DNA from: a virus
Strand: one strand, 5' to 3'
DNA length: 64,000 nucleotides
Virus record (IMG/VR): IMGVR_UViG_3300042453_005575
Location: 1 to 64,000 of that record
Position numbers and translations under genes: made by a program. Under the pieces are notes generated by a model. It was not told the origin of the DNA. It ran no database searches and saw nothing but the letters and a program-made list of their open reading frames with translations. Of this stretch, positions 9,001-54,346 are shown piece by piece. Every line of letters begins with the position of its first letter. The stretch's first letter is position 1.

Positions 9001-10880
9001 AGTATTCGACCGATGAAGGGCTAACTTGGATCAGTCTTAGTTCCGAAAGCCTTTCCGGAAGAATAAACATCACCGGGCTAACCAATGTAGCGAGTAATAT
9101 GGCAGGAACTTTAGGTCTTATAATTAGAGAAGTTTATGCTACTGGGTTAAAAGGCCCGGTTCCTCCTATACCAACAAACAAATTAAACCCCGCAGCCGCT
9201 CCAACAGCTTCACACTTTACGCTCAATGGCGTTGGGTCAGCGGATTGTGCTAATAGATGGAATTATAGCGGCTATACAAGCAATCCGGCCCCGGGAATTT
9301 ATGTTGCCGAAACCTTAGTTCCGACCACTCCCTGCGCGGGGGACTTTAGGCTGACAGGTGGATCATCCACATATTCAACAACAATAGGGTTTCCGTCTCC
9401 ACCATGGACATCGAGCTCAGCAGTTTTGTGTAAAGTATGGACTAACCTTTATGGTGCCACGGCGCCGACAGGCACTTATTATCACCCATCGCTCGGGGGC
9501 TCAACAAATATCTGGGTACGAATCAAACTTAGTAGTGCATCAAGTTACCCTGCGTTATCATCCGCAACACCTAGCCTTACTATGGACACGGATGAGATAT
9601 CCGGTTCAAAAACCCTCGGTGATCCAAATATCAGCTCAAATAATTCCGCGCAAGTTGTACATTATTCTGTATTCTTAGACCTCGCTACTATACGCTCAGG
9701 TTCAACAACACCAACATTCCATAGAACCTTTGGGTACGACAAAGGGATTTCTTATTCTACTAATGAATTTGCTTTACCTATACCGCCACAAACAACAAAC
9801 CCACAGATAACTATCTCACTAAACCAGGCCGCAGAACAAATGACTGTGACTTACCCGGATGGTGTAATAACCACACCTCCAACAATACTAGCTGTGGTTC
9901 CATCATACACCCAACTTAATGCTTTAACAATTTTCTTCACACCTCCTAGCGATATATATAGCAATCTAAACAGTATAACAAGATACGAATTTCGCTATAC
10001 ACATGCCGGAACAACTTATGGCTGGGAAACATTAAACGACGCAACTTCACCAATAACAACTCGAGCGATGGCTCAAGTACCAGGCGAGCAATTTAATATA
10101 CAAATTAGAGCCATTACTACGTGGGGTAAAGGAAAAGAGTCTAATTTTATGCTCGGAACAACAGGAGGAACAACAACCGCTCCTTCAGCCCGATATGTAT
10201 CAGGAAATTTAGACATCTCCTATACTTGGGACAATGATACGAGTACTTATACTGTTGTTTTAGGAATAAAACGTCCGGAAAAAACACTAAATAACCAAGC
10301 TATTGTCGGCTATCAATTCGGCGGTACTCTGAACGGGATCCCCATAACTTTTAGAACTGCGACTGTAATAAACGGGACAGCAGATTCAGAAACACCATCG
10401 CTGCGTTTCTCTTTATCAGCAGGAAGTTATGTTATAAAGATACAAGCAAACACCTCTTCGACTCTCCATGGATCCGGCTTGGGTGAACAGTCTGCGGATA
10501 TAACTTTCACAACTCCAGCAGCGCCCGCGTCTGACGCACCTGATATTTCCGGGCTTGAATACTTCCTGGAGCCCCCACCTCTTACAGGAGGCGATTATCG
10601 CTTAACTGGTGGGATATATTTTTATAATTTAAGAGGAACTATAGGTGGCTTGGAGTACAAACTAAACAACGGAGCATGGACGAATATTGACTATTATCCG
10701 ACAAATAGCATGGGGCTACCACGAACTCCTTTCTATTTATTTACTCACACATCGAACTGGTATGGACCAGGCCCCGAGCCATTACCTTACCCCGGAATGT
10801 ACCGAATAACCATTAGAATTCGATATCAAAATAGCAGCCTAGGTTATTCGCTCCCGAGCAACGAAATTCAAAATTCATAA
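3..10880 (+). CDS. Giant (>3600 aa) Ig/FN3/carbohydrate-binding repeat protein, probable virion fibre or adhesin; 5'-truncated by the window
   Basis: Frame is open from position 3 (SSYATQPGG...LPGGLTFNTTSGIIIGK). Contains He_PIG-like Ig repeats, carboxypeptidase-regulatory-like repeats, a CBM5/12-like motif (WSYGTTYQVGNLVSYQGFVYRA), many FN3 repeats (YEYSLD.G.TW...ITGL..GT.Y.VRIRA.N..G) and SusE/X25-like modules. Confidence 0.85.
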   Translation, partial: SSYATQPGGTSFSIDNTKTFTGLDPVFRPNIISGGPAIRFELLNATPLPGGLTFNTTSGIIIGKLTVNASGTYSNSIRGVNIKGPTEYIEFTINYSKFTAPVFASPQAGAIINLAYGQTYSETAPLFTAAASTIDGGSDNFAPGLTDTTRNKYTISYNNSTTSGFSMGLYTGKFVGAAANSWSPTSGDFPANITATNPAGSSTRAITLRVSRPLPPVVQTPKPNDLFTVVRGTTYTENNSILTPFATNNPTAWSASGLPSGSGLTISGSSGKLIGVVNNTLGANVYAVDIRAENSAGASPAVPIKIIVPIAIISPGLNQTIDVGVEGSIISNVDIVVSGVPAGATISYTAVTLNIAGLQLQTFTPAPGLPLSAKIIGTPTSAGLYTVVIRVSAQTSDSQNLGSVDARFFIRVQSVKSSIAGKITKDDGTTPIADAVVSLSALSRTATTNASGDYMLTDIVDGQYIASVSKAGFVFTPATQLITVNSQNISGVNFTGVEVISISGRIRTSNNIGISGVTVSTGTTSVSTNASGEYALIGVSPNQTITLIPSRSNYSFMPSRLTLQIATTSLQNQDFVGAIAYAVSGTITYGGQPANSLTPVLGTTIAARNASTKETLYFTTAAANGTFSLLLPTGSYELVPISYLLRFNPVTIDVTVGTTAVPNNNFNSVDAVSHMIRVLDAPENSQLELPISGASVRVLEGPMKDYWGLTDARGDVILHGLGTGDNNQQITQHRLQIIKQPYIFPSGDNALEITLRSLGYDQRQVTSWSYGTTYQVGNLVSYQGFVYRAQGSSGFVSLSPPNLEPSRWLSLGASFPLGVTAMTIVTPNFFTVSGKVTFSSQFVLANPNYPYANERIKLYRADIPTRDAFVAVSGAPIVSAGARTYNYIFTDVPGGEINYKLGLASPQGKTTAPIGEYSLNFFNADVTNKDFTISQLTATPPGTPSISSINPEKQALLINVATPPDNGAPITSFQVSLDNGATFVTFTSGINIPTSRFRISNLTNGTTYQVVVRAINVAGSSAWSAMVPAIPATPIYNTMYVFGLTGDLGNPSMSPPMAKLQGSSYIWKADELVRSPADTRYRYAVGPTTSEPMWGPGTGGVSPVSTTSSSWFEFLDTAQSGVYEFTFDNDLLTQSAIFKYGRPTSPTINSIITANGTAVVNFSQSTADVVASYEYSLDEGATWATVTPGTSSPAVIPGVLFGVDYRFGLRAVNIVGRSPSSPYRTIRGNIVPQPPENISVIARDGMVEVNFTPGPSVAGETVVNMKYSINGGSTFAARSPIDNRSPLFITDVTNGQTYNIQLKSSNDAGDSGAAPVPSISATPIADPSRTQMKILLNPGSASWATGAQMTKTGDYTWRGSATVTSATNVNFRFAFDSNSSVLGWGLGGEAGKVRRSNQAINLTDATIGIYEFTLNTQTQTYTVTKIVSLPQPPTLTSYITSPSTISFAFVAPEDNGGSPIIGYQYSISPTTTPASWIDLVEVVVVTAPNTPVHGRYARNGVLNGKPRYTKSDGCTIAWFTNGISKYWYISRSEANNSQDGVYYSNQSDAVTPNLVPASDWNVSPNASINLGISDIPLPPQVLLLSGGAFDDIGYYTISGLAPGVAVSLFLRSINILGAGNATNPATTIRPANLPASPTITGVTSPKDGELHIAYTPLTASTDTPITGYEYRVRQGSVYVDSNWSQFRGGLSERPGVIRELKRNTEYTVELRAFNRSGGGAVSEWTATTMDRAFTNIYLIGDHNDWSFVTRPAMVKQGTTNEWVYTMPVDDPTNKSVKFVIGSSWTDPHWGDNEGYSVLLSDNIADRDADNISIDGFGPGLYRFYFWDNTYKYDFKKICNLPDQPIITSVTISGSTATVNFRPSSYTPNNLLNPSSAITNYSYQLSYQSTTTPWTLFNPAITTSPAQITGLLSGIQYTIKMRANIPEGGGLPSDPFTFNTLLDASSTMYIVGTDDFGGFTTFSESQKMGLNQAGQFWEKTLNINSTPTSGYLEFKFATGPFGQPGQFDWGDSNQDGVAGLGEDNIRLYTSSGLGAYKITFTPSNSTYSVLFVTPVSNPPTLGTFTSTANSITLSFTPPTFTGGLPITEYRYSLNNGAFTSTSPVTQSSPITITGLTESTAYSIRLVAVTSAGSSAPSTAINASTTGPAYSSMFIIGSASELGAWNTANGPAMTSISGSGGYGWSADINFTSIGSVEFKFFVQRDFNSIGWGDGTDQDGIAEQGGNNIVRNIASAGLYRISFSTLTRAYSIQLVSSVPSAPTISAVSIPSNSTTSATLTLATSQSGAGITNYAYSLNSGTFTDISPATGSVGSITVTGLLSGTTYTARLVAKNAAGSSPASNSVEFKTPVSTMYVPGLMGSWPGSTDPFSEQNSFQMSRPTWVDDGHTWTLLAPINTLPANNNISFKFATGPNWSTGLNWGAGNLAGTAAQNGPDITHNFSSGPGVYTVTFNTRQLTYSITYSGAIQSAPSITSITPSDTSLTVNFTLGSSNGTTVTGLEYSLNGGGWQARNPQGTSSPLVITGLSLGVTYSVSIRSISNNGRSAASSTVSQTTSATLTPPFITSVSPASTTSLSVAYTASTASAGYSVTGYQYSLDNGSWLIPSGSSSSANPMVITGLTAGTFYSVRIRATGTPPSTSQPSASNTAVTAYATMYIPGLIGNFNTPFNTTGQVTMASGLGGDLHNLHNWWATHEITSTGNVSYKFAEGPSWNDDNWGVADSANPSGSLVSGGVNITRSVTTLGIYEITCNIRTLTHTFVLLSSAPAITSITSAGGQLSVNFTAPSNNPSTITSYEYSTDNGATWRARSSGATESPLVISTISGTANTTLVPGTAYQVRIRARYDGATQSYPGGAKVLNSPASTAVSATPTASTDAPSAFRVLTSTDTLTADFISPNTNQNTITNYQYSLDGGQTWTAMNPSVTSKKFDHVVLTIPYTTSQANVGVRAVTSAGTGAASSFVSVSRPTGSSVTTTLARWGSQTLRATIRVSSSNTQKNHIRGYEYSTDEGLTWISLSSESLSGRINITGLTNVASNMAGTLGLIIREVYATGLKGPVPPIPTNKLNPAAAPTASHFTLNGVGSADCANRWNYSGYTSNPAPGIYVAETLVPTTPCAGDFRLTGGSSTYSTTIGFPSPPWTSSSAVLCKVWTNLYGATAPTGTYYHPSLGGSTNIWVRIKLSSASSYPALSSATPSLTMDTDEISGSKTLGDPNISSNNSAQVVHYSVFLDLATIRSGSTTPTFHRTFGYDKGISYSTNEFALPIPPQTTNPQITISLNQAAEQMTVTYPDGVITTPPTILAVVPSYTQLNALTIFFTPPSDIYSNLNSITRYEFRYTHAGTTYGWETLNDATSPITTRAMAQVPGEQFNIQIRAITTWGKGKESNFMLGTTGGTTTAPSARYVSGNLDISYTWDNDTSTYTVVLGIKRPEKTLNNQAIVGYQFGGTLNGIPITFRTATVINGTADSETPSLRFSLSAGSYVIKIQANTSSTLHGSGLGEQSADITFTTPAAPASDAPDISGLEYFLEPPPLTGGDYRLTGGIYFYNLRGTIGGLEYKLNNGAWTNIDYYPTNSMGLPRTPFYLFTHTSNWYGPGPEPLPYPGMYRITIRIRYQNSSLGYSLPSNEIQNS

Positions 10881-12872: not shown

Positions 12873-13817
12873 ATGGACCAAATAATTGACTGGTTAAACG
12901 AAAACGAATATCGAAGTTTTCCCCTTATAGAAGACTTTACTAGAGTCACAGGAGGCTCTGCAGGAGGCTGGGAGCTAGATAATGGAGTAATACTCGATGC
13001 GCAGATCGTGAACAACAATTCCTCATTTCCCACAAACTCAGCTAATTTCAATGTTCTGCTGAAAACTATAGAACATGTGACTGAATTTGGAACTCGAAGT
13101 CTGAAGTTTATTTTCGGAGATACCGGCAATACATTTGTTACTTTCACGGTAACCTCTCCTCTAAACAAGGTATACCCATTGTACCTCAGGGATCCATCCA
13201 CCGGGAGCTTGCTTGTTTTGGGGGAAGCCACAAAAAAAATTCCTATGGTGGCAACTGATGTAGATGGTGTCGCCACGTTGAGTATTCCAGTAGAACCTTC
13301 TGTTTGCTATGATTTTACAGAAGCTTGGCTGGGTGTGAAATCGATAGATTCTTTGGATAATAAGAAAACTCTGACGATTGTCGGTAATCCTACTGATTCT
13401 TACAAACCTTTTCTACCTCTTCAACCCGCAGACCCCAGCAATCCTCTCCAAGGAGATGTATATTTTTTAGAAGGCTACAATTTCAAAGTAGACATGAGTG
13501 ATGGCTTTGTTAATTTATATGTAGGAGCTGAGTATGGGCTACAAATGGAGTGCGGACTGTCATTTATAGCTTCGGAATATTTGGATTGCGATGAACTTGT
13601 GTCGTATATAAATGGAATTCCTCCAGACAATAAGGGTAATTTCCGACTGCTAGGAGGAAATAATATAAATATAATCGAAGGCACTGCGCTGCCGTTCGAA
13701 ATCAATGATCCTTTTGAAGTAGAAACTGACGCCCGCCCGCATTCGCTGTTTGTCGGCTTGACTTTCGAAAGTTCTGACTTATGCTCACCTATAAGTATAG
13801 TGCCTACAATTGAATAA
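12873..13817 (+). CDS. Putative virion structural protein (paralog 3)
   Basis: 314 aa; WLNENEYRSFPL and SYINGIPPDNKGNFRL motifs. Confidence 0.6.
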   Translation: MDQIIDWLNENEYRSFPLIEDFTRVTGGSAGGWELDNGVILDAQIVNNNSSFPTNSANFNVLLKTIEHVTEFGTRSLKFIFGDTGNTFVTFTVTSPLNKVYPLYLRDPSTGSLLVLGEATKKIPMVATDVDGVATLSIPVEPSVCYDFTEAWLGVKSIDSLDNKKTLTIVGNPTDSYKPFLPLQPADPSNPLQGDVYFLEGYNFKVDMSDGFVNLYVGAEYGLQMECGLSFIASEYLDCDELVSYINGIPPDNKGNFRLLGGNNINIIEGTALPFEINDPFEVETDARPHSLFVGLTFESSDLCSPISIVPTIE

Positions 13818-13819
13818 TT

Positions 13820-14152
13820 ATGACAACATCCAGTAAAAATAAACGACTTGTGTTTACAAGTGTAAATCAGCTAATTACATTATTGAAAGATAACCCTGAT
13901 ATTGCTAGACAAATGCCTAGATTTGCTCCGTTAGCTAAAGCAGAACTAAGTTCTTCACCTAAAAAAGGATGTAATTGTGGAGCTAAACAAAATATAGTTA
14001 CTCCTGACGTCAATAAGCAAATAGCTGAAGGAATCTTATCTTCCCTGACTAATGAAGATTTTGTTCAAATTAAAAATATTTTAGAATTATCTGAACTATG
14101 TTATTATAAGAGAGACAAAGAAAATAATAAGCTAGAATTAATTTGTGTATAA
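13820..14152 (+). CDS. Hypothetical protein with CxC motif
   Basis: 110-aa ORF packed in the operon; KKGCNCG. Confidence 0.6.
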   Translation: MTTSSKNKRLVFTSVNQLITLLKDNPDIARQMPRFAPLAKAELSSSPKKGCNCGAKQNIVTPDVNKQIAEGILSSLTNEDFVQIKNILELSELCYYKRDKENNKLELICV

Positions 14153-14800
14153 ATGATAAAAGGTGACAAAGAGCAATATCTTGAAAATGGAGTGAATAGC
14201 TCAGACCCTCTCCTAGTGGGCAACAGCGGCTATAATTCACGCGCACCAGGTAAAAGCAGTATAGTCGCTAGAGGGGTGAGCCCTACTAGCACAGAAGAAA
14301 ACCAACTTTTTCTTGATGGAATTCCTGGGGCGATTTTTCAGCGTGGCGAGCCTAACCCTGATGTGTTTTATCAGGGGGATGATGTTATTTATGACGTTTA
14401 TCTATTTTTCCGTGGAAAACCTGTTACCACAGACGACTATGAGATAGTAGTTTCAGTTAAACCTAGCCCAAGAGCGATAAATGATATTTGGCGCGCCACA
14501 TCAGAATCCGGGTTAAGTGAAGTAAAAACTAGCGGAGCAGGTTATTTTGAAATATGGATTCCTTCGCAGGTAACCTCAGAAATATTGGCTGGTTCGTATT
14601 ATATTACTGTGTGGGTTAAAGAAAAGTTTGCGGCTACCGGAGGAAAATACGATAGATCAAGCGTTATTTTAACCCACATCTTCAACATCACCTATAGCGC
14701 TTTTTCACCTAAGCCTGAAACAGCATCTTCAGAATCTTTTGAAAAAATACACCGAACGAATTTAGAAAAAACTTGGCCTCCACACCAAAGTACAATCTAG
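14153..14800 (+). CDS. Hypothetical protein, possibly a BppU-like Ig-fold baseplate/adaptor
   Basis: FYQGDDVIYDVYL...IWIPSQVT...AGSYYITVWV resembles the BppU N-terminal pattern. Confidence 0.4.
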   Translation: MIKGDKEQYLENGVNSSDPLLVGNSGYNSRAPGKSSIVARGVSPTSTEENQLFLDGIPGAIFQRGEPNPDVFYQGDDVIYDVYLFFRGKPVTTDDYEIVVSVKPSPRAINDIWRATSESGLSEVKTSGAGYFEIWIPSQVTSEILAGSYYITVWVKEKFAATGGKYDRSSVILTHIFNITYSAFSPKPETASSESFEKIHRTNLEKTWPPHQSTI

Positions 14801-14856
14801 TTATTTTCAAACATCCCCAAGCCATATTTAGTTATTATTTAAGGTATAATAATTAG

Positions 14857-15228
14857 ATGAATAATAGCTATTCTGAAAAAAATTATAGCGAAAGCGTAAT
14901 TTTTAATTTAAGTGAAGGAAATCATGGTGCTATTCGTGTACTCATGGATTCTTTAATAAACAACGAAAAAATAGACCCACAGAATGCTTGGGGGGCGCTA
15001 GGTTTCATACTCAACATTGCTGCTATGAATATTAGGGGCAGTAGAATTTGGGTACTCTATAAAATGGTTGGTTGCGATTTGGTCAAAGCTACAGCCATTA
15101 TTCGAGCAGCTCAACTTGGGATTATATCTAGAGCGGAGCTTAGAAGAATGATAGACTTTGAGGATGGAGCTTGCGCAGATGCGTTGTTGTGTAAAGTTCG
15201 AGAAGTGCTAGAAGACTTTGCCATGTAA
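14857..15228 (+). CDS. Hypothetical phage protein
   Basis: 123 aa; LSEGNHGAIRVL...IRGSRIWVLYK; TATAAT lies 6 nt upstream of the ATG. Confidence 0.7.
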   Translation: MNNSYSEKNYSESVIFNLSEGNHGAIRVLMDSLINNEKIDPQNAWGALGFILNIAAMNIRGSRIWVLYKMVGCDLVKATAIIRAAQLGIISRAELRRMIDFEDGACADALLCKVREVLEDFAM

Positions 15229-15280
15229 AAGCACTGAGAAAACATTTATATGTTTTCTCTTTAGCTGTTAGATAAATTTA

Positions 15281-15321
15281 TAATTTTTTGGTATAATATA
15301 TTGAACGGCACTATTGTGCTT
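15281..15321 (+). promoter_or_regulatory. Repeated promoter-like element, copy 1 (upstream of tmRNA)
   Basis: TTTTTTGGTATAATATATTGAACGGCA(C)TATT(G)TGCTT; near-identical copy at 16927-16968; contains TATAAT. Confidence 0.7.
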
Positions 15322-15360
15322 TCGCTTGATTTTTTGTTAGCGTAGTATTATATTATTTAT

Positions 15361-15786
15361 GGGGGTATACTGGCTTCGATACGTAGTCCGTGTATCATAA
15401 AACAGCCGAGGATGATTCGTTGGCCTCGTAAAAATCGAATCAAAAACTAAACGCCAATATTGAAATGGCTCCTTCTCTCGCAGAAGCTGACGCTATCCTC
15501 GAAGCCACCGGCTTTGTTGATTCCGAGCAGCTGATGGCCGCCTGACCGGCGCCATCGCTTAAGAAGGCACAGGACCGAGGATTGAGAGTAACCTCGCGGC
15601 TGCGAAACGCCGTAAAATCTCTCAAAGATGATGGTAAACCATTCCGCTCGAATATGCGTTAATTATTCCTCGACTCATGTTAGGTCTCCAGCCGACCGTA
15701 TATGAGTTTAAATAAATAAGCTGGTAAGCTGTAGCTTTTATGCTATGTTAATTACGTAGACAGGGGTTCGACTCCCCTTACCTCCA
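15361..15786 (+). ncRNA. ssrA: tmRNA
   Basis: 5' GGGGGTATACTGGCTTCGA; 3' T-arm GGGGTTCGACTCCCC and acceptor TACCTCC-A with G3.U pair; tag ORF 15453-15545 ANIEMAPSLAEADAILEATGFVDSEQLMAA*. Confidence 0.95.
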
Positions 15787-15794
15787 CATTTTAC

Positions 15795-15866
15795 TGCAGG
15801 GTCGACAAGGGGTTAAGTCACTGCGCTCATAACGCAGCATCGAGGGTTCGAGTCCCTCCCCTGCTA
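15795..15866 (+). tRNA. tRNA with CAT anticodon (Met or Ile2)
   Basis: Cloverleaf: GCAGGG/CCCTGC acceptor with 1:72 T-T mismatch, CTGCG-CTCATAA-CGCAG anticodon arm, GGTTCGAGTCC T-arm; CCA not encoded. Confidence 0.9.
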
Positions 15867-15875
15867 ATCTTTTTT

Positions 15876-16553
15876 ATGAAAAGTATATTTTATGCTCCCG
15901 TTCTTGAAACTGGGAAAAACCACCAAATATTGTTTTGGGGCTGCTTGCATTATAGGCACAATCCTAAGTGGGAAATTCCTCTATGGAAACGCCGAGGTTT
16001 TAGTAGTTCTGAAGAACATGATGCTGCAATTATAGATAGATGGAACAGCAGAGCTTCTAAAGAGACTATCGGCTTTTTACTCGGTGATAATGTTTTTGGG
16101 TATAACGCAGCTGAATCTTTTCGAAGTTTATTAAATCGTCTGGTTTTCAATCGGATATATATAATGCCTGGAAATCATCAAGCCGGGTGGAAACAAACTT
16201 TTGAATCTTTGGATGAAAATATTTATTTCGCTCAGCATGGTGGAGAAGTAGTGCTTGTTCCGAATTATTTAGAAGCTTATATTAACGGGCAAGCTGTTGT
16301 TATGAGCCATTACCCCATATTATCTTGGAATGGCCAAGCAAAAGGAAGCTGGATGTTGTTTAGCCATGTACACGGCTCTCTGAACAAGTCAGAGGTGGGG
16401 AGATTATATTTAACTAACGGGCTTAACAAAGAAGTATCCGTAGAAGCTTCACCTTATCCTTCCTCGTTCGGGGATATAAAGGAATGGATGTCTCGAAAAA
16501 CACTTTTTTCTCCGGACCACCACGAAAAAAGTAACAACACTGGTTTAATTTAA
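15876..16553 (+). CDS. Calcineurin-like metallophosphoesterase
   Basis: Motifs GCLHYRH, LLGD, PGNH, SHYP, SHVH. Confidence 0.85.
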   Translation: MKSIFYAPVLETGKNHQILFWGCLHYRHNPKWEIPLWKRRGFSSSEEHDAAIIDRWNSRASKETIGFLLGDNVFGYNAAESFRSLLNRLVFNRIYIMPGNHQAGWKQTFESLDENIYFAQHGGEVVLVPNYLEAYINGQAVVMSHYPILSWNGQAKGSWMLFSHVHGSLNKSEVGRLYLTNGLNKEVSVEASPYPSSFGDIKEWMSRKTLFSPDHHEKSNNTGLI

Positions 16554-16673
16554 AACTTTGCAAGAAGTAAAGTAATTACCCCATAATTATTTTGCTTTTG
16601 CAGATGGTGGAGAGGCGGCATAACCTGTCGTCCCTGGCGCGCCGTGACCGCCTTATGTCCGGCAACCTTTTTT

Positions 16674-16904
16674 ATGAACGTTAAAGAATTAATCGAACAA
16701 TTATCCAAACATGATCCTGAAGCTATGGTGGTAATAAGAGGCTATGAGGATGGTGTTGATGAAGCTATTAAAACCGAAGCAGTGCAGATTTCTAAATTTC
16801 CTATTGTTGAATGGTATTATGGAAAATACAGAATTGAACACCAGGCTGAGCCGAATATAAAAACAACCTCGGCTGTGTATATAAACAACGGTAAATATTT
16901 TTAG
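16674..16904 (+). CDS. Hypothetical phage protein
   Basis: MNVKELIEQLSKHDPEAMVVIRGYEDG; the ATG at 16674 is preferred to the GTG at 16644. Confidence 0.7.
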   Translation: MNVKELIEQLSKHDPEAMVVIRGYEDGVDEAIKTEAVQISKFPIVEWYYGKYRIEHQAEPNIKTTSAVYINNGKYF

Positions 16905-16926
16905 AATCAACAAAATATATTTTAGT

Positions 16927-16968
16927 TAATTTTTTTGGTATAATATATTGAACGGCATTATTATGCTT
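16927..16968 (+). promoter_or_regulatory. Repeated promoter-like element, copy 2 (upstream of the ncRNA cluster)
   Basis: Direct repeat of 15281-15321. Confidence 0.7.
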
Positions 16969-16984
16969 GTTTTTAATTTTGGCC

Positions 16985-17078
16985 GTGTGCGGCCATAAGA
17001 TAACCTCGGTAACGAGAACAAAGTGGATCGCCATCACCGTGGCGATCTGCGGGGGTCCTCGACCCCTCCGAGCACACA
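16985..17078 (+). ncRNA. tRNA-like cloverleaf RNA (non-canonical)
   Basis: GTGTGC/GCACAC-A closing stem, CTCG-GTAA-CGAG, GATCGCCA-TCACCG-TGGCGATC and GGGG-TCCTCGA-CCCC arms. Confidence 0.5.
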
Positions 17079-17093
17079 AGGAGGTAATCATTA

Positions 17094-17697
17094 TTTCTGC
17101 CTGTTGAGGGTTTTAAAGGAATAATGCTTTCCGGTTGAGACCCGGAAGGTGAGTGCTAAAAACACAATAAGTAAACCTTTAGCTGATATGCGAGCAACTA
17201 GACTGGTAATCTAGGTATCGCGTTCAGCAGCTTAGAAGTTTTCGCTGAGAAAGGCAGAGGAAACTTCAAAACCGTGCTAACCAGGCACAGGATCAGTAGC
17301 GCATCAATTCTCTCAAAAGGAGAGTTGGCGGAACCCGCGAGCACTGATTCAGGATCTCAGGTGATATCTAGCCTTCTAACAGGGGCATATAGAAACCTAA
17401 AAAGGAAAGCCTCGGGGCTTCTGCAGTGAAAGATGACTTCGTCCCAGGAAAAGCCTGGGGTTTATCGGCTCCCTAAAGCCGGTATTAATAGAGGTTAGGA
17501 TAATCTTTGGAACCTGTAGCAGGGTTTGGAGGGTGCGCAGCCTTCACAGAGAGGAACTAGCGAACAACTGTGGATGAAACCTTGATTTGGGGTAACAAAT
17601 CGTCATTGCTAGATACGTTGCAAAATAACGTGGATAAAACGGAGAATCAATATACTTCGTCAAAGCCTAGTAGTTGTAGCTGTAATCTCAGGCTGCA
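17094..17697 (+). ncRNA. GOLLD-like large ornate RNA
   Basis: About 600 nt, ORF-free and helix-dense; terminal hairpin GTAGCTGTAATCTCAGGCTGC as recalled for GOLLD 3' ends, with loop TAATCTC able to pair with GAGGTTA (17491-17497); phage tRNA context. Confidence 0.65.
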
Positions 17698-17705
17698 TTA
17701 ATTTA

Positions 17706-17778
17706 ACTCGACTTGGCGAGTATAAACAGGATGTAGGCCAAGAGCGGCAGGCTATATTTTTTACATAGCTTGCAATTC
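17706..17778 (+). ncRNA. Pistol-like self-cleaving ribozyme
   Basis: ACTCG-ACTTGG-CGAGT-ATAAACAG-GAT-GTAGG-CCAAGA-GCG-GCAGGCTAT...ATAGCTTGC-AATTC: P1, pseudoknot, AAA linker, GCG core and P3 are all present. Confidence 0.7.
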
Positions 17779-18212
17779 GGCAAGTGTGCTGCAGCATACT
17801 TTACCTCGACCGGGCTAGGCTCTAAGCGTTTGTGGAAACTTAGAATAAGTATCTGAGGTCAGGTCTCCACAGACCTGAGGCGAGATACAAACTAGTTATA
17901 CAGAGTAGACCTCGCAATCCGGCTTGCTTTGGTTGTTGCCTCTACTCATGATTTATAATTTTGGAGGATATCGAAAGAAATACATTCTATGTTTAAACAT
18001 AAAAGTTCATATACCTCCATTTCTTTTTGTGTATCTTTTTTGGTACGCAAAACCACTGGCCCAGCAGTGAAGTGCTGCAATCTGGGACAAATTTTTAGCT
18101 ATTTACTGGTTTAGCGGTATAACCTCGAACCAGGTAAATTTAATTCATAAAAACAATAGAAAGTAAAAATGAGCAACAAACTAAATTCAAACAAAGACTG
18201 GGAGGAACTCTA

Positions 18213-18491
18213 ATGATTACATACAAACCGCCAGGCAAGATTAAAATTTCAAAAGAGCGTAAAGTGGACATTATAGACATACTCGATGATATTATTGGAG
18301 ATATAGCGAATGATGCTTTTTTTAACCCCAAACTATCAGTTAATGACTCTAACTATGAGAATATCGCAAATCTCAACGATATCCACCGTGAGCTTCAAGG
18401 AATAGATTTTATTGCTGTAGAACTCCAGAAACTTAAAATCGAACGCACCAAAGAAGCTAACAATTTACTTAAAAAAATAATTAAAAAATGA
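18213..18491 (+). CDS. Hypothetical protein
   Basis: 92-aa ORF; stop overlaps the next start. Confidence 0.55.
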   Translation: MITYKPPGKIKISKERKVDIIDILDDIIGDIANDAFFNPKLSVNDSNYENIANLNDIHRELQGIDFIAVELQKLKIERTKEANNLLKKIIKK

Positions 18492-18823
18492 CTAATTATA
18501 CATTTGGCGTTATAACAAAAATTCCTTCATACAAAGAAGGCGGAAACCTCTATAGTTCTCTGATGGTTAACGAAGAAAAACAAGAAGATGGTTTTGAATC
18601 ATATAGAGAACTTAATGATGAAGACGAAGATGTAGAAAGTAGAGATAATGCAAATTTCATATGGGCACGAAGACCTACCTTTGAACTGGGAGAGATTTTA
18701 ATTCTCGACGGTGAGTATGGAAGAGAAGTTTGTGGAAAAGGGAGAAAACCCTCTAAATGGGCCGTAGAATGTATATATTTTTCGGATCTCGAAACCGCTG
18801 TTGAGCGAGCTAAAAATCTATAA
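18488..18823 (+). CDS. Hypothetical protein
   Basis: 111-aa ORF. Confidence 0.65.
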   Translation: MTNYTFGVITKIPSYKEGGNLYSSLMVNEEKQEDGFESYRELNDEDEDVESRDNANFIWARRPTFELGEILILDGEYGREVCGKGRKPSKWAVECIYFSDLETAVERAKNL

Positions 18824-18869
18824 TTAAATTAAAGTTGTAATTAGTAATTTTAAACCAAATAAAAAATAA

Positions 18870-19394
18870 ATGGGATACACACACTATTGGACATTTAATC
18901 CAGATGAAATTGAATCTACCACCGAACTTCGAAAGAATTTTTTGGAAGCATCGCGCCTTGTTCGCAGAGGCTATCTCGCAATCAAGAACAATCCATCCCT
19001 CCACGAAGGAATTGCAGGAGGGGGTTATGACAACGAACTCTGCGAAATCAGAGGAGGGATGGGGACAGGTAATCCCGTTTTCAACGAATCTGAAATCTGG
19101 TTCAACGGAGAGGAAAAATCTGGATTGAGCCATGAAACATTCCACATTCAAATGCAAAAACCTATGAGGGACTTTTGCAAGACCGCAAGAAAACCATACG
19201 ATATTCTTGTGTGTTATGCACTTCTATGTTTTGACCATGTGTTCGATAACAAATTGGTATTTCATTATTCCAGCGATGGAGACAATTACGATTGGAAAGC
19301 GGCATATCGCTTTGCGAGGGAAGTGGGAGGTTTTGAACCTAAAATGTTTGAGGAGGGAATACGAAATCAATTAGCAACAAAACAATTAGAATAA
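18870..19394 (+). CDS. Conserved phage hypothetical protein (MGYTHYW family)
   Basis: MGYTHYW...HETF...FCKTARKPYD...SSDGD motifs. Confidence 0.75.
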   Translation: MGYTHYWTFNPDEIESTTELRKNFLEASRLVRRGYLAIKNNPSLHEGIAGGGYDNELCEIRGGMGTGNPVFNESEIWFNGEEKSGLSHETFHIQMQKPMRDFCKTARKPYDILVCYALLCFDHVFDNKLVFHYSSDGDNYDWKAAYRFAREVGGFEPKMFEEGIRNQLATKQLE

Positions 19395-19401
19395 CAATAA
19401 T

Positions 19402-19974
19402 ATGCCAAACTGGTGCAACAACACAATTCAATTTGAAAGCAGAAAACCTATTCGGGATTTCCTTTCACCATACCTTAATAAACTGGAAGATGGAGGATAT
19501 GAATTTGATTTCAACAAGATCATTCCAGTTCCAGAGGATTTGGTAATCACTTCAGCCCCCGGCACAAAGGACGAGGAACTTCAAGCAAAATACAAAGCAA
19601 ATACCAAAAAACACGGATATGCGAATTGGTATGATTTTTGTATAGAAAGGTGGGGAACCAAGTGGAATGGTAGCGGAGACTTTAGCCATGATGACAAGGC
19701 ATTTATATTTGAAACGGCATGGAGTCCATCACTACAAATCACAGCAGAAATCGCAAAGCAATTACCAGATGATGAAATGCTAATTCACAATTACATTGAA
19801 GAAGGCATGGATTTTTGTGGCAAGTTTGTTGCTGGCAATCTTGGTAGGGACGATGAATTCTATAATAAAATCTCCGATGCTCCCCAATCATTGAAGGATG
19901 AACTTGGATACGAGCCTTGGGAGGAAGAAGAACTTGACGAGGATGAGGATCTGGTGGAAGATTCAAAGCCATGA
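19402..19974 (+). CDS. DUF1281/YubB ferredoxin-like protein
   Basis: MPNWCNN, FDFNKIIPVP, WYDFCIERWGTKWN, FETAWSP. Confidence 0.8.
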   Translation: MPNWCNNTIQFESRKPIRDFLSPYLNKLEDGGYEFDFNKIIPVPEDLVITSAPGTKDEELQAKYKANTKKHGYANWYDFCIERWGTKWNGSGDFSHDDKAFIFETAWSPSLQITAEIAKQLPDDEMLIHNYIEEGMDFCGKFVAGNLGRDDEFYNKISDAPQSLKDELGYEPWEEEELDEDEDLVEDSKP

Positions 19975-20477
19975 CACCATACAAACACACCCAATCAAGC
20001 CAACCCAAGTGGGGTGGTATTCCAGAAGATTACATCGCATTACATGACTGGTTTGATGAAACCAAACAATATACAGGTGATTGGACACATCGTGCGTTGC
20101 GCCATCATTCAGCAGGAGTGCAATGGGCGATCAACGAATTTGGACACACCATTGAAAATTCCAAGGGACAAAAAATCCCAACAAAATTACTTGCAGAACA
20201 GCACTTGATGGAGGATTATGGATTCATTCCAACTCCCAAGGATTACCTTTCACCACTCATTAAAAATCCAGAGAAGTGGATGCTGATGGTGGGGGAAACA
20301 AACCAAACAACAAACATTAGAAATAAAATGAAAATCGAAATACCAGACAAACTCATTTTAGATATTAAAACAGCTTGTCATGGATATGACATACCAGAAA
20401 CTCATCAAGAAATAGAACAAACGATTCAATCTATTTTAACCGCATGGATTGAAACAGAAAAAAACAAATCATGGTGA
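19971..20477 (+). CDS. DUF6915-like protein
   Basis: PYKH..SS..KWGG.PEDY..LHDWFDETK, HRALRHH, EQHLMEDYGFIPT. Confidence 0.75.
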   Translation: MTPYKHTQSSQPKWGGIPEDYIALHDWFDETKQYTGDWTHRALRHHSAGVQWAINEFGHTIENSKGQKIPTKLLAEQHLMEDYGFIPTPKDYLSPLIKNPEKWMLMVGETNQTTNIRNKMKIEIPDKLILDIKTACHGYDIPETHQEIEQTIQSILTAWIETEKNKSW

Positions 20478-20909
20478 GCAACTCTACCTCTCAGTTAGAC
20501 CTAAAACTGAGTCTCTATATAAAAGAGATATAGGAAATTTCGTGATAGTTAATGGGTTGCTTCACGAAATTTTTCCTTAAAACAGAGTATGGGTTTCTAG
20601 AAGACATCCTAAAGCCGAGTAAGCTAAAACTTCTAGACAGGTTTGGTGTTCTGTGTTAAATTGAATTGTTTCAATCACACAGCCTCTTGAGGCGCAACTG
20701 CAGAGGTCCTAATTGCGATGAAAACACCAACTTTTAATTTGAGGTAACCACGAACCCACTGGTAATAGGCATTATACGAAAATGGAAAGTTCGTATGAGT
20801 AAGTCCTGCCTCAAAACTCCTATTACACGTTTTGCGTGTATTAGGAGTTAGAATAAGCATTAATTGTAGATTAAAATAATTTTTTTGTTTTTAGCTAGCA
20901 GTATATTTC

Positions 20910-20986
20910 CGCGACCTCATAAATTTTATACTACTATATTCGAGTAATTTCGATATAGACAGCTCATATACTTTTATGAGGTCGCG
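20910..20986. repeat. 14-bp perfect inverted repeat (possible terminator or RNA helix)
   Basis: CGCGACCTCATAAA (20910-20923) / TTTATGAGGTCGCG (20973-20986), just past the stop of the minus-strand gene. Confidence 0.7.
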
Positions 20987-20993
20987 AAAGTAT

Positions 20994-22289
20994 TTATTCT
21001 TTTATCGCAGTAATTTTAACATCATGACACGTCAGCTGTATCATGGTAAGCAATTGGCTTATGTATTTTTCATTTATAAATGGAATACCTATACCTAAAC
21101 TTAAAAACTTTTGTCGGATACCTTTGGAGAACAGATGCCTTGATACAAAATATTTATCTTCCATTTCAAAAGGAATCGCAATTTTTTCAAAATATATCAT
21201 CCCGCACCAGACAAACTCTTCGTCTCCATTTTTTGTTGTAATTTTTTTGATTTCGCTGATGTCCAAAGTAAAATTCGTTAGCTGCTCCTCTTCATTTCGC
21301 TTTATTAGGAAATAAGCTTTATCGCGTTTTACATAGGTCTTTCCTTGTACATTGAACTGATGTTCTCGAGTTTTCATCCAGTAAGGCATTAATTTCTGGT
21401 TTGAATTTTTTTCTAGCTCTTGAACTTGCGAATAATTCAGTAATGCTACATGATTTTTTAAATCTTCGGATCCCATTTTTCCTAGCATTAGATCAACGAT
21501 GCTTGTTTTGAACTTGGATTTAGAAGCTTCGCTCCATATTTTTATGAGTTGCTCGGTACCCAGCATGTCTGATATACCTACAGCTTTTTCTGTGTTCCAG
21601 TAGTCATTTTTATAGTTCCATGTGTTCCCGGGTTTGACTTTTAACTCATTGAAATCCCGTAGTATTTCAACACCAGATTTTCCATACCAACCGTACTCAC
21701 CGTTCATAAATACAAGTTCTCGTGTATGTATATCGTTTAATTTAGCTAACTCCAACGTACATATATGCTTAGGCGAGCTAAAAGAAGGTATTACAATAGT
21801 TTTTTTATATTTGTATTTATTCTCTAAATTCAACTTAGGGAAAGCTTTCATAACTTTTTCTGTTAAGTAGCCTATCTCATTTGCAATTAAATAAGGCATT
21901 CCCATGTCAACCAGGATATCTTTAAAGTAAGTGACTTTATCAAAATTTCTTGCTCTGGCAACCTGGGCTTCTTGTTTACTTAATAGCCAAACAGATTGAA
22001 AAGTCATTATACGGGTTTGATTTTGGTATAACTTTTTTTCAGCATATTCAGAATATGGAAGATTAAAGTCAAAACAATCAGAAAAATCTCTACATATAGT
22101 GCCATATAGCTTAGGCCAATCATCGATCGGAAAAAAATCAAAAATATTCCCGATAAAATCTTGCGTTTTTGATTTAGCGTACCAGCCAAACAAAGGTAGT
22201 CTTATAAAATCGTATTCCGACGTATGCATACCCAACTTTGATACCACGCTTGGTAGGTTTATTTTACTATTGAATGTATTCAGTAACAT
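20994..22289 (-). CDS. Hypothetical protein (431 aa)
   Basis: Long minus-strand ORF with no recognised motif. Confidence 0.8.
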   Translation of the reverse strand: MLLNTFNSKINLPSVVSKLGMHTSEYDFIRLPLFGWYAKSKTQDFIGNIFDFFPIDDWPKLYGTICRDFSDCFDFNLPYSEYAEKKLYQNQTRIMTFQSVWLLSKQEAQVARARNFDKVTYFKDILVDMGMPYLIANEIGYLTEKVMKAFPKLNLENKYKYKKTIVIPSFSSPKHICTLELAKLNDIHTRELVFMNGEYGWYGKSGVEILRDFNELKVKPGNTWNYKNDYWNTEKAVGISDMLGTEQLIKIWSEASKSKFKTSIVDLMLGKMGSEDLKNHVALLNYSQVQELEKNSNQKLMPYWMKTREHQFNVQGKTYVKRDKAYFLIKRNEEEQLTNFTLDISEIKKITTKNGDEEFVWCGMIYFEKIAIPFEMEDKYFVSRHLFSKGIRQKFLSLGIGIPFINEKYISQLLTMIQLTCHDVKITAIKE

Positions 22290-53947: not shown

Positions 53948-54346
53948 ATGGGACTAGACATGTTTGCATATAGTGTACCTAAAAACCATGCAATTTCTCC
54001 ATTTAGTTACACCAAAGATACACAAAAAGAAATACATTATTGGAGAAAACACCCGGCTTTGCATGAGTGGATGGAAACATTATGGACAGAAAAGATGCGG
54101 GATGCTAATTATGGGTATTTGGATGCGTCATTAACGTTTAATACTTGCCCTATAGAACTGAATTCAGAAGACTTAGACCGCTTAGAAAAAGATATTAAGT
54201 GCAATAATCTTTCACATAAAAAAAGGTTTTTTTCATGTGAAAATTCTCCGGATGAAGAACGCGTTATTGACGATTTAACATTCATACATAAAGCTCGCCA
54301 AGAATTATCAGACGGAAACGCTATCTATTACGATTCTTGGTGGTGA
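53948..54346 (+). CDS. Conserved phage hypothetical protein
   Basis: MGLDMFAY...YWRKHPALHEWM...FN...YYDSWW. Confidence 0.8.
   Translation: MGLDMFAYSVPKNHAISPFSYTKDTQKEIHYWRKHPALHEWMETLWTEKMRDANYGYLDASLTFNTCPIELNSEDLDRLEKDIKCNNLSHKKRFFSCENSPDEERVIDDLTFIHKARQELSDGNAIYYDSWW

Follow-up and report, generated by a model that had tools for sequence, protein, structure and literature searches.

GOLLD RNAs (RF02032) and pistol ribozymes (RF02679) are both described families of structured RNA, and neither of them, to our knowledge, has a known biological job. In this work we describe a locus where members of the two families adjoin, a full-length GOLLD RNA being followed at once by a pistol ribozyme. 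It lies in a non-coding island at 16905-18212 of the window, by which we mean the whole stretch of 64,000 nucleotides (nt) analysed here, the first 64 kb of the 90,076-base IMG/VR virus record IMGVR_UViG_3300042453_005575 (estimated completeness 46%). Membership in either family is not new. No description of a GOLLD-pistol adjacency was found in the searchable literature, supplements lying outside the search, and the accessible text of PMC5737381 names both families without linking them. The reading that we favour, with moderate confidence, is that the island would be one transcript started at a promoter and cut once by the pistol into a GOLLD-plus-pistol RNA and a tail, the cleavage being predicted.

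In regard to the described systems, a cryo-electron microscopy study of GOLLD cages and a review present GOLLDs as built from a conserved 3′ domain and a variable 5′ domain (10.1101/2024.12.08.627333; review PMC12990946), with full-length molecules of 700-833 nt (PMC12990946), and their proximity to transfer RNA (tRNA) genes is also stated (PMC5737381; 10.1101/2024.12.08.627333). For pistols, Harris et al. 2015 (PMC4604425) place the cut next to the ribozyme's own 3′ end and describe the P3/P2 junction as a modestly conserved GU, the length of two being strictly conserved. The RNA of the window has the two-domain architecture, a length of about 700 nt or more and a phage setting near tRNA genes, and belongs among the GOLLDs.

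The GOLLD RNA and the pistol ribozyme behind it

The sequence-only reading of this DNA had taken the island for a series of non-coding RNAs, listing among them a GOLLD-like RNA and a pistol-like ribozyme, and had proposed an Rfam scan as a check; the items it named proved to be real and to lie where it had placed them. In a permissive Rfam scan covering 16600-18400, RF02032 was found at 17289-17694 on the + strand with 150.0 bits (gathering score 150 bits, E 1.5e-41, full model 1-416) and RF02679 at 17706-17773, also on the + strand, with 40.9 bits (gathering score 34.5), other matches having E 0.08 or worse. The whole 90-kb record holds one GOLLD copy and one Pistol copy. In a default-filter Rfam scan of the whole window, Pistol was present and GOLLD missing. 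Two relatives delimit the GOLLD, namely L010, part of a 121-kb IMG/VR contig, and L253, a Joint Genome Institute (JGI) metagenome contig, and the two RNAs are composed as follows.

16980-17288, + strand: GOLLD 5′ domain with a cloverleaf-like four-way junction at about 16985-17082, from the alignment with L010 (from 2241) and L253 (from about 9787)
17289-17694, + strand: Rfam-modelled part of the GOLLD (RF02032), with the last 5′ hairpin, a variable linker and the conserved 3′ domain
17695-17705, + strand: linker of 11 nt between GOLLD and pistol, from the coordinates of the Rfam matches
17706-17778, + strand: pistol ribozyme (RF02679)
17706-17710 with 17717-17721, + strand: pistol P1, 4/4 checked positions pairing
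17712-17717 with 17737-17742, + strand: pistol pseudoknot, 6 pairs
17722-17726 and 17742-17746, + strand: pistol core, AUAAA and GAGCG, matching the Rfam consensus
17747-17755 with 17765-17773, + strand: pistol P3, 9 pairs
17729-17732 with 17775-17778, + strand: pistol P2, AUUC against GGAU, including a G-U pair
Within 17773-17775, + strand: predicted pistol cut

The closest relative, L010, is 82% identical from window 16980 through 17751, and because it aligns from 16980 the GOLLD is taken to start about 310 nt before the Rfam-modelled part, which gives a full GOLLD of 715 nt at 16980-17694, inside the published range. L253 is 75% identical over 16972-17698. In these relatives RF02032 reaches 141.2 bits (L010) and 122.2 bits (L253), both under the cut-off, and a whole-unit nhmmer match to another GOLLD locus, L029, was weak (E 9.3e-06). 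Covariation with homologs, another of the checks that had been proposed, bears the 5′ domain out: for the window and L010, RNAalifold predicted 95 pairs, with 16 compensatory and 0 broken, and with L253 included 24 of the 102 predicted pairs are compensatory. Furthermore, the fold of 16950-17700 has a z-score of -6.65.

The cloverleaf that had been noted at the start of the island is real as a shape, three hairpins closed by one stem at about 16985-17082, and was rejected as a tRNA: ARAGORN found none between 15866 and 53313, and no RF00005 match was present in 16600-18400 at E ≤10. Instead, among the four-way junctions of the GOLLD 5′ domain it is the first. The view of the island as many separate RNAs fell with it, since the cloverleaf and most of the hairpins are domains of one GOLLD of about 715 nt that aligns as a unit with L010 and L253.

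Two side observations concern the GOLLD and its upstream edge. The 5′ domain contains a perfect Shine-Dalgarno-like AAGGAGGU in a predicted pairing with ACCUUU (17076-17085 with 17174-17181), and the Shine-Dalgarno-like sequence is invariant or nearly so across the window, L010 and L253; ribosome binding of GOLLD in pull-downs is mentioned in 10.1101/2024.12.08.627333. Upstream of the GOLLD, L010 (about 2085-2215) and L253 (about 9670-9770) have in common a structured element, 84% identical over 49 nt, whose hairpin shows a compensatory change (CUGAAAU...AUUUCAG vs CUGAAAA...UUUUCAG) and which is absent from the window.

The pistol of L010 scores 47.4 bits, above the RF02679 cut-off, and its core, P1 and pseudoknot are nearly identical to those of the window. 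In P3, as read from the two sequences, all 9 pairs differ on both sides and all still pair, with the loop differing as well; since every pair was changed on both sides yet kept, this argues for selection on the pistol fold, such a rewriting being hard to explain otherwise. Pistols are described with ten highly conserved nucleotides. In the window, AUAAA and GAGCG agree with the Rfam consensus, as does the A in the UUA linker, and four upper-case consensus positions differ: the P1 loop has A for U, P2 has A for C, and the linker and the position after GAGCG each have G for U. Self-cleaving activity, Mg2+-dependent in this class, is put here as plausible, somewhat on the likelier side. Related to the ends that a pistol makes, 5′-OH and cyclic phosphate, an RNA_ligase-family gene (PF09414, 72.6 bits) at 63702-64163 of the genome may have a bearing on them, and no RtcB was found in the 90-kb record, which is 46% complete.

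Part of the GOLLD is also present in RNA libraries. Four freshwater metatranscriptome runs (X12, X13, X17 and X20), belonging to three studies, have Logan contigs on 16977-17645, the identity being 99-100% for the most part and most contigs showing no difference at all. The positions where contigs stop, 16977 and 17644/17645, do not mark ends of the RNA, and one contig end there carries a sequence that we take to be a sequencing adapter. In one of these runs, X12, an RNA contig on 17421-17581 has 12 other letters (11 of them itemised) and 3 indels relative to the window, and in one loose end of this contig a GOLLD hairpin is rewritten with the pairing kept; the contig represents a third, divergent GOLLD lineage in a freshwater metatranscriptome. 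The stretch 17646-18212 is without an RNA contig, and in 13000-21000 the flanking genes have almost none, apart from one of 165 nt at 20482-20646, tmRNA pieces that are short and conserved, and a chimeric piece (18864-18895); a part without cover proves nothing, and no conclusion on cleavage, the tail or the relative level is drawn from it.

Elements adjoining GOLLD RNAs in other phages

Searches for relatives of the island gave few loci. A blastn search of 16900-18220 against 50,697 phage records returned no match. A strict pattern that joined the 3′ end of the GOLLD to the core of the pistol was found in 12 viral contig stretches, among which only L010 is real (12 of the 12 were scanned at the gathering level and 11 at E 0.01, L003 being omitted for its size), and it had 0 matches in metagenome contigs and 0 in genome contigs. 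Three lineage-specific patterns gave L010 alone among viral contigs. A 20-mer from the 3′ domain found L253 in metagenome contigs and nothing in genome contigs; the same 20-mer also met L252, which is GC-rich and unrelated and was rejected as a chance match. L010 and L253 are syntenic with each other. The genes flanking the island of the window have no tblastn match in L010, and the flanks of L253 have no proteins in common with the window.

On a broader scale, a GOLLD 3′-end pattern gave at least 120 IMG/VR stretches, and an iterated nhmmer profile found the 3′ domain in 94 of 132 loci. What follows the GOLLD 3′ end is a hairpin with a T run at 36 of these 94 loci and a tRNA at 24, the latter 9-19 nt on and in one case 68 nt on, as counted from the profile end of the GOLLD, which is possibly a few bases short of the Rfam end. 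One locus (L010) has a pistol in this place, 31 are unclassified, and two have too little sequence.

From 1200 nt upstream to 500 nt downstream of the GOLLD, a pistol motif with a sound P1 was found in L010 and L080 only, a candidate in L018 being dropped for its single P1 pair and its distance of 1154 nt. On the minus strand of L080 (912-94), a full GOLLD (3′ domain 197.9 bits) begins at the end of a canonical pistol (69.4 bits), and the cut of this pistol would form the GOLLD 5′ end. L080 is a second, independent GOLLD-pistol pairing. A GOLLD was absent from all 118 further pistol-pattern loci. Such patterns need exact words, so that divergent GOLLD-pistol pairs are missed and two loci in 94 are not a frequency. 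At the contig end of L080, about 75 nt past the GOLLD, there is also a sequence resembling the first GOLLD bases behind the pistol, which hints at a second unit cut by the contig end.

Promoter, tail and gene setting

The remaining features of the island, upstream and downstream of the GOLLD-pistol pair, are the following.

16931-16957, + strand: promoter-like element with an extended -10 (TGGTATAAT at 16936-16944), an exact 27-mer repeat
16954-16967, + strand: 5′ leader hairpin GGCAU-UAUU-AUGCU, with compensatory differences between the promoter copies
17779-17960, + strand: folded tail (predicted fold) made up of one hairpin (17782-17801) and two stem-closed modules, a three-way junction (about 17813-17897) and a hairpin (about 17903-17946)
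17962-18045, + strand: long hairpin with GGAGG and CCUCC arms (17962-18019), then a U-rich run (18020-18045), candidate intrinsic terminator
18053-18103, + strand: terminal element conserved in L010 and L253, with CCCAG (18060-18064) and CUGGG (18082-18086), a U run at 18092-18096 and then AGCTATT
18101-18139, + strand: last hairpin before the next gene, from the minimum-energy fold

The upstream element had been described as duplicated before the transfer-messenger RNA (tmRNA), and this holds to the letter: allowing up to three mismatches in the window, the 27-mer with TGGTATAAT has copies, both exact, at 15284-15310 before the tmRNA and at 16931-16957 only, and 0 of 100 shuffles gave any match. 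The tmRNA copy appears in a consensus scan as a TG-extended -10 site, and from the position of the -10 transcription would start at about 16951-16953. In the leader stretch the copies differ at two positions only (16958 T vs 15311 C; 16963 A vs 15316 G), which face each other in the stem of the leader hairpin, the pair being kept. A shorter core, TTTTTGGTATAAT, has four sites in the 90-kb record (15285, 16932, 70736 and 81774), each with a hairpin a few bases on, and the near-identical pair of promoters consists of the tmRNA and GOLLD copies only. L010 has the same kind of promoter site. As a general phage promoter motif TTTTTAGCTATT was rejected, its one exact and three one-mismatch sites in the window being equalled by 8 of 100 shuffles. 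The TTTTTGGTATAAT site at 81774 leads to a hairpin and a T run and then to genes and a tRNA cluster (82780-83217), and in L010 a promoter-like site TTGACT-17-TATACT lies immediately before the GOLLD.

Behind the pistol, the three-way junction and hairpins that had been pointed out are present in the minimum-energy fold of 17774-18050, which has a z-score of -2.35, with 3 of 200 shuffles as stable. Apart from the hairpin with its U run and the terminal element, this tail shows no sequence similarity to that of L010, and in L253 the folded tail is absent. The span from the GOLLD to the terminal element is 357 nt in the window, about 1030 nt in L010 and about 158 nt in L253; what lies between the GOLLD and the terminator-like elements is the pistol and about 180 nt of modules in the window, the pistol and about 1 kb in L010, and almost nothing in L253. 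The tail may be read as a fast-evolving cassette.

Counterparts of the GGAGG hairpin and its U run are found at about 3183-3262 of L010 and about 10532-10598 of L253, the distal stem being different in each yet paired, as compared by single folds and direct reading, since the MAFFT alignment of the three sequences is poor there. The terminal element is 85% identical to L010 3988-4038 and 81% to L253 10676-10726. The pseudoknot that had been proposed at 18055-18086 can be drawn, with an optional stem of CACUG (18055-18059) with CAGUG (18065-18069), and only its CCCAG/CUGGG stem has a compensatory change among the three sequences, a single C-G to U-A pair that makes it CCUAG/CUAGG in L253. The folding energy of the terminal element is no better than that of shuffles (z 0.10), loops are long in these terminator-like features, and the U run of the second begins 5 nt past the stem. 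With reservations, given the result of the consensus terminator scan considered below, 17962-18045 and 18053-18103 may be read as terminators. As a whole, 18040-18212 is no more stable than shuffles (z 0.53), and the 18101-18139 hairpin has no counterpart in L010 or L253, where a gene begins right after the terminal element.

Two short sequences at this end of the island deserve mention in their own right. The near-palindromic TTTAGCT(A/G)TT is present in the window at 15260-15269 and 18094-18103, elsewhere in the genome at 84953 and 66268(-), in L010 at about 843, 1985, 3612 and 4032, and in L253 at 10719. In all three phages it sits at the edges of non-coding units and right after U runs, and it is not enriched window-wide; it might belong to a terminator or serve as a protein-binding site. 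Furthermore, behind the GGAGG hairpin the U-rich run has a stretch, 18019-18038, that is complementary over all its 20 nt to 54014-54033, within a 132-amino-acid open reading frame (ORF) at 53948-54346 (BLAST E 3e-5 within the 90-kb record), and 17974-17986 repeats 54026-54038 in the same sense. The tail of L010 has no comparable complement in its 121-kb record, and the complementarity is treated here as unexplained, not as a function.

In regard to the setting, DNA runs containing the stretch are lake and freshwater metagenomes of 15 studies. The island is bounded by the stop of a small gene at 16904 and by the ATG of a 92-amino-acid gene at 18213, whose protein has no homologue except itself. 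The small upstream gene was placed at 16644-16904, and because its PHROG matches begin only at residue 11 it probably starts at the ATG at 16674 instead of the GTG at 16644. Between the two genes there is, as had been claimed, no credible ORF: the longest on the + strand has 51 amino acids (17274-17429, within the GOLLD), and three ORFs in or overlapping the island (96 amino acids on the minus strand, 41 and 48 on the plus strand) have no Pfam or PHROG match. Also upstream are a phosphoesterase-like gene (phrog_547, E 1.5e-33) and, 1.1 kb away, the tmRNA and a tRNA-Met, two neighbours that both stand behind the twin of the GOLLD promoter. The phage tmRNA (15361-15866) has an unusually long tag of 30 residues (ANIEMAPSLAEADAILEATGFVDSEQLMAA), and the tRNA-Met follows 7 nt after it. 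The 90-kb record has 10 tRNA genes.

A proposed mechanism, its alternatives and known systems

According to the model that we favour, the island is a single non-coding transcription unit of a large freshwater phage, in which a strong host-type promoter with an extended -10 would start a single primary RNA at about 16952, with a short leader hairpin and then the complete GOLLD folding co-transcriptionally. By homology, the GOLLD may assemble into an RNA-only multimeric cage. The pistol, 11 nt past the GOLLD, would then fold and cut its own backbone near 17773-17775. The upstream product would consist of the GOLLD with about 80 nt of linker and ribozyme, ending in a 2′,3′-cyclic phosphate, and the downstream product would be a tail of about 270-330 nt with a 5′-OH, ending at either the hairpin with its U run (17962-18045) or the terminal element (18053-18103), the predicted last positions being 18045 and 18096. 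The favoured benefit of such a cut would be to uncouple a stable cage RNA from downstream transcription, the pistol presumably taking the position where other GOLLD genes carry a terminator or a tRNA (RNase P). Of the earlier idea of one precursor giving several RNAs, this model keeps the precursor, in line with the single promoter-like site, the built-in ribozyme and the presence of part of the GOLLD in RNA libraries, and gives up the string of separate RNAs.

Several observations weigh against this model. The GOLLD score is exactly on the cut-off. The RNA contigs attest presence in RNA libraries only, the ends, strand and level of the RNA being beyond the reach of contigs. In 15000-18600 the consensus terminator scan lists no + strand terminator. 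For the pistol itself, cmscan left the last 6 model positions of RF02679 unaligned in the window, and the best parse of both the window and L010 consists of a 9-bp P3, a single A and a 4-bp P2, which falls short of the junction of two nt. Alternative parses leave the closing P3 pair open (junction CA in the window, GA in L010) or shift P2 by one, and cmscan drops one junction position in the L010 pistol. For comparison, among 39 unique IMG/VR pistol-pattern sequences, checked by P1 and the pseudoknot, 31 were parsable, and a 2-nt junction was found in 21 of these 31 natural pistols, GT in 18 of the 21. The window and L010 do not differ in P2 or in the junction, so that there is no covariation there. 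Finally, the pistol is dispensable, since L253 has a GOLLD that goes without one (no Rfam match at E ≤5), straight to a hairpin and U run.

Alternatively, the pistol could serve the downstream side, providing a defined 5′-OH for the tail RNA or for a message from 18213, or acting as an insulator from strong GOLLD transcription. We regard this as unlikely, though deserving serious weight as the chief alternative, because a cut on the 3′ side leaves the ribozyme on the GOLLD and the clean end on the downstream RNA, where only about 4-5 ribozyme nt stay if the cut falls near the 3′ end, as given in PMC4604425; a role for the tail fits this at least as well as one for the GOLLD. Behind several natural pistols a purine-rich stretch and an ATG come within about 20-60 nt (by eye, uncounted), in L080 the RNA after the pistol is the GOLLD, which gets the clean end, and the tail of the window folds somewhat better than shuffles (z -2.35). 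However, the tails of the window and L010 share only the hairpin with its U run and the terminal element, L253 has no tail, and two terminator-like elements stand between the pistol and the next gene, which starts 440 nt after the cut.

A relic, with the pistol decaying or inactive and the 3′ end of the GOLLD made by the hairpin and U-run terminator as in L253 and many other GOLLD loci, is rather improbable; the pistol and tail would then be passengers. The non-canonical junction, the unaligned 3′ strand, the absence of the pistol from L253 and the very variable length between the GOLLD and the terminal element (357, about 1030 and about 158 nt) would agree with this, but two phages without flanking-protein similarity have the core, P1 and pseudoknot in intact form, both copies are above the Rfam cut-off, and P3 was wholly rewritten with its 9 pairs kept, which argues for selection on the fold. 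Least probable, and by a wide measure doubtful, is the division of one precursor into several independent small RNA genes, namely a tRNA-like cloverleaf, a GOLLD, a pistol, a three-way junction RNA and a pseudoknot RNA. One promoter, one ribozyme and the stem-closed modules of the tail are compatible with it; however, the cloverleaf is not a tRNA and is contiguous and co-conserved with the rest of the 5′ domain in three sequences, no further processing site (tRNA, second ribozyme) was found in the island, and the tail modules are unconserved between relatives.

Returning to a single cut beside the GOLLD, pistols might more generally be recurrent natural end-makers of GOLLD cages, acting on the 3′ side in the window and L010 and on the 5′ side in L080, a suggestion that we make tentatively and with less than even confidence. 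If it is true, GOLLD would be the first concrete biological substrate for the pistol class, cage assembly would need exact-ended monomers, possibly with a retained ribozyme or cyclic-phosphate end in the particle, and the junction shorter by one nt would be an active natural variant, widening the definition of the pistol class. The GOLLD-pistol pairing, found in two arrangements and in unrelated gene neighbourhoods, offers a directly testable link between cut, stability and cage assembly. In addition, the pistol of the window is a natural one whose scissile junction is unusual, and a compact GOLLD unit of putatively defined ends, from the promoter to the candidate terminators, becomes available for structural work.

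Compared with the GOLLDs as described (RF02032), the RNA of the window shares the full-model match of the 3′ domain, a 5′ domain that is set apart and less conserved, the length, the phage origin and the nearby tRNA and tmRNA genes. It differs in having its own promoter, in a score that is on the cut-off, with its relatives below it, and in being followed by a pistol instead of a terminator or tRNA; at the DNA level its 5′ domain is shared with L010 and L253 only. With the pistols as described in PMC4604425 (RF02679), the ribozyme of the window has in common P1 and P3, the pseudoknot joining the P1 loop to the P2-P3 linker, a core of AUAAA and GAGCG, and the phage context, whereas its junction is one A (or CA with a shortened P3) against the usual 2 nt, mostly GU, its P2 has a G-U pair, and its setting is downstream of a giant non-coding RNA instead of close to a protein gene.

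The 94 IMG/VR loci include GOLLDs punctuated by tRNAs or terminators, and these likewise have an end-defining element about 10-20 nt past the GOLLD 3′ hairpin; there it is an RNase P substrate or a terminator, and here it would be a self-cleaving RNA retained on the GOLLD. Ribozymes of the hepatitis delta virus (HDV)-like kind cut at their 5′ edge, leaving nothing on the upstream RNA, whereas the pistol cuts at its 3′ edge. Related to this, the Theta (HDV-like) ribozymes beside phage tRNA genes, as described in PMC10879173, are also small ribozymes adjoining a phage non-coding RNA and presumably making its end, but they belong to another ribozyme class and their partner is a tRNA, not a GOLLD.

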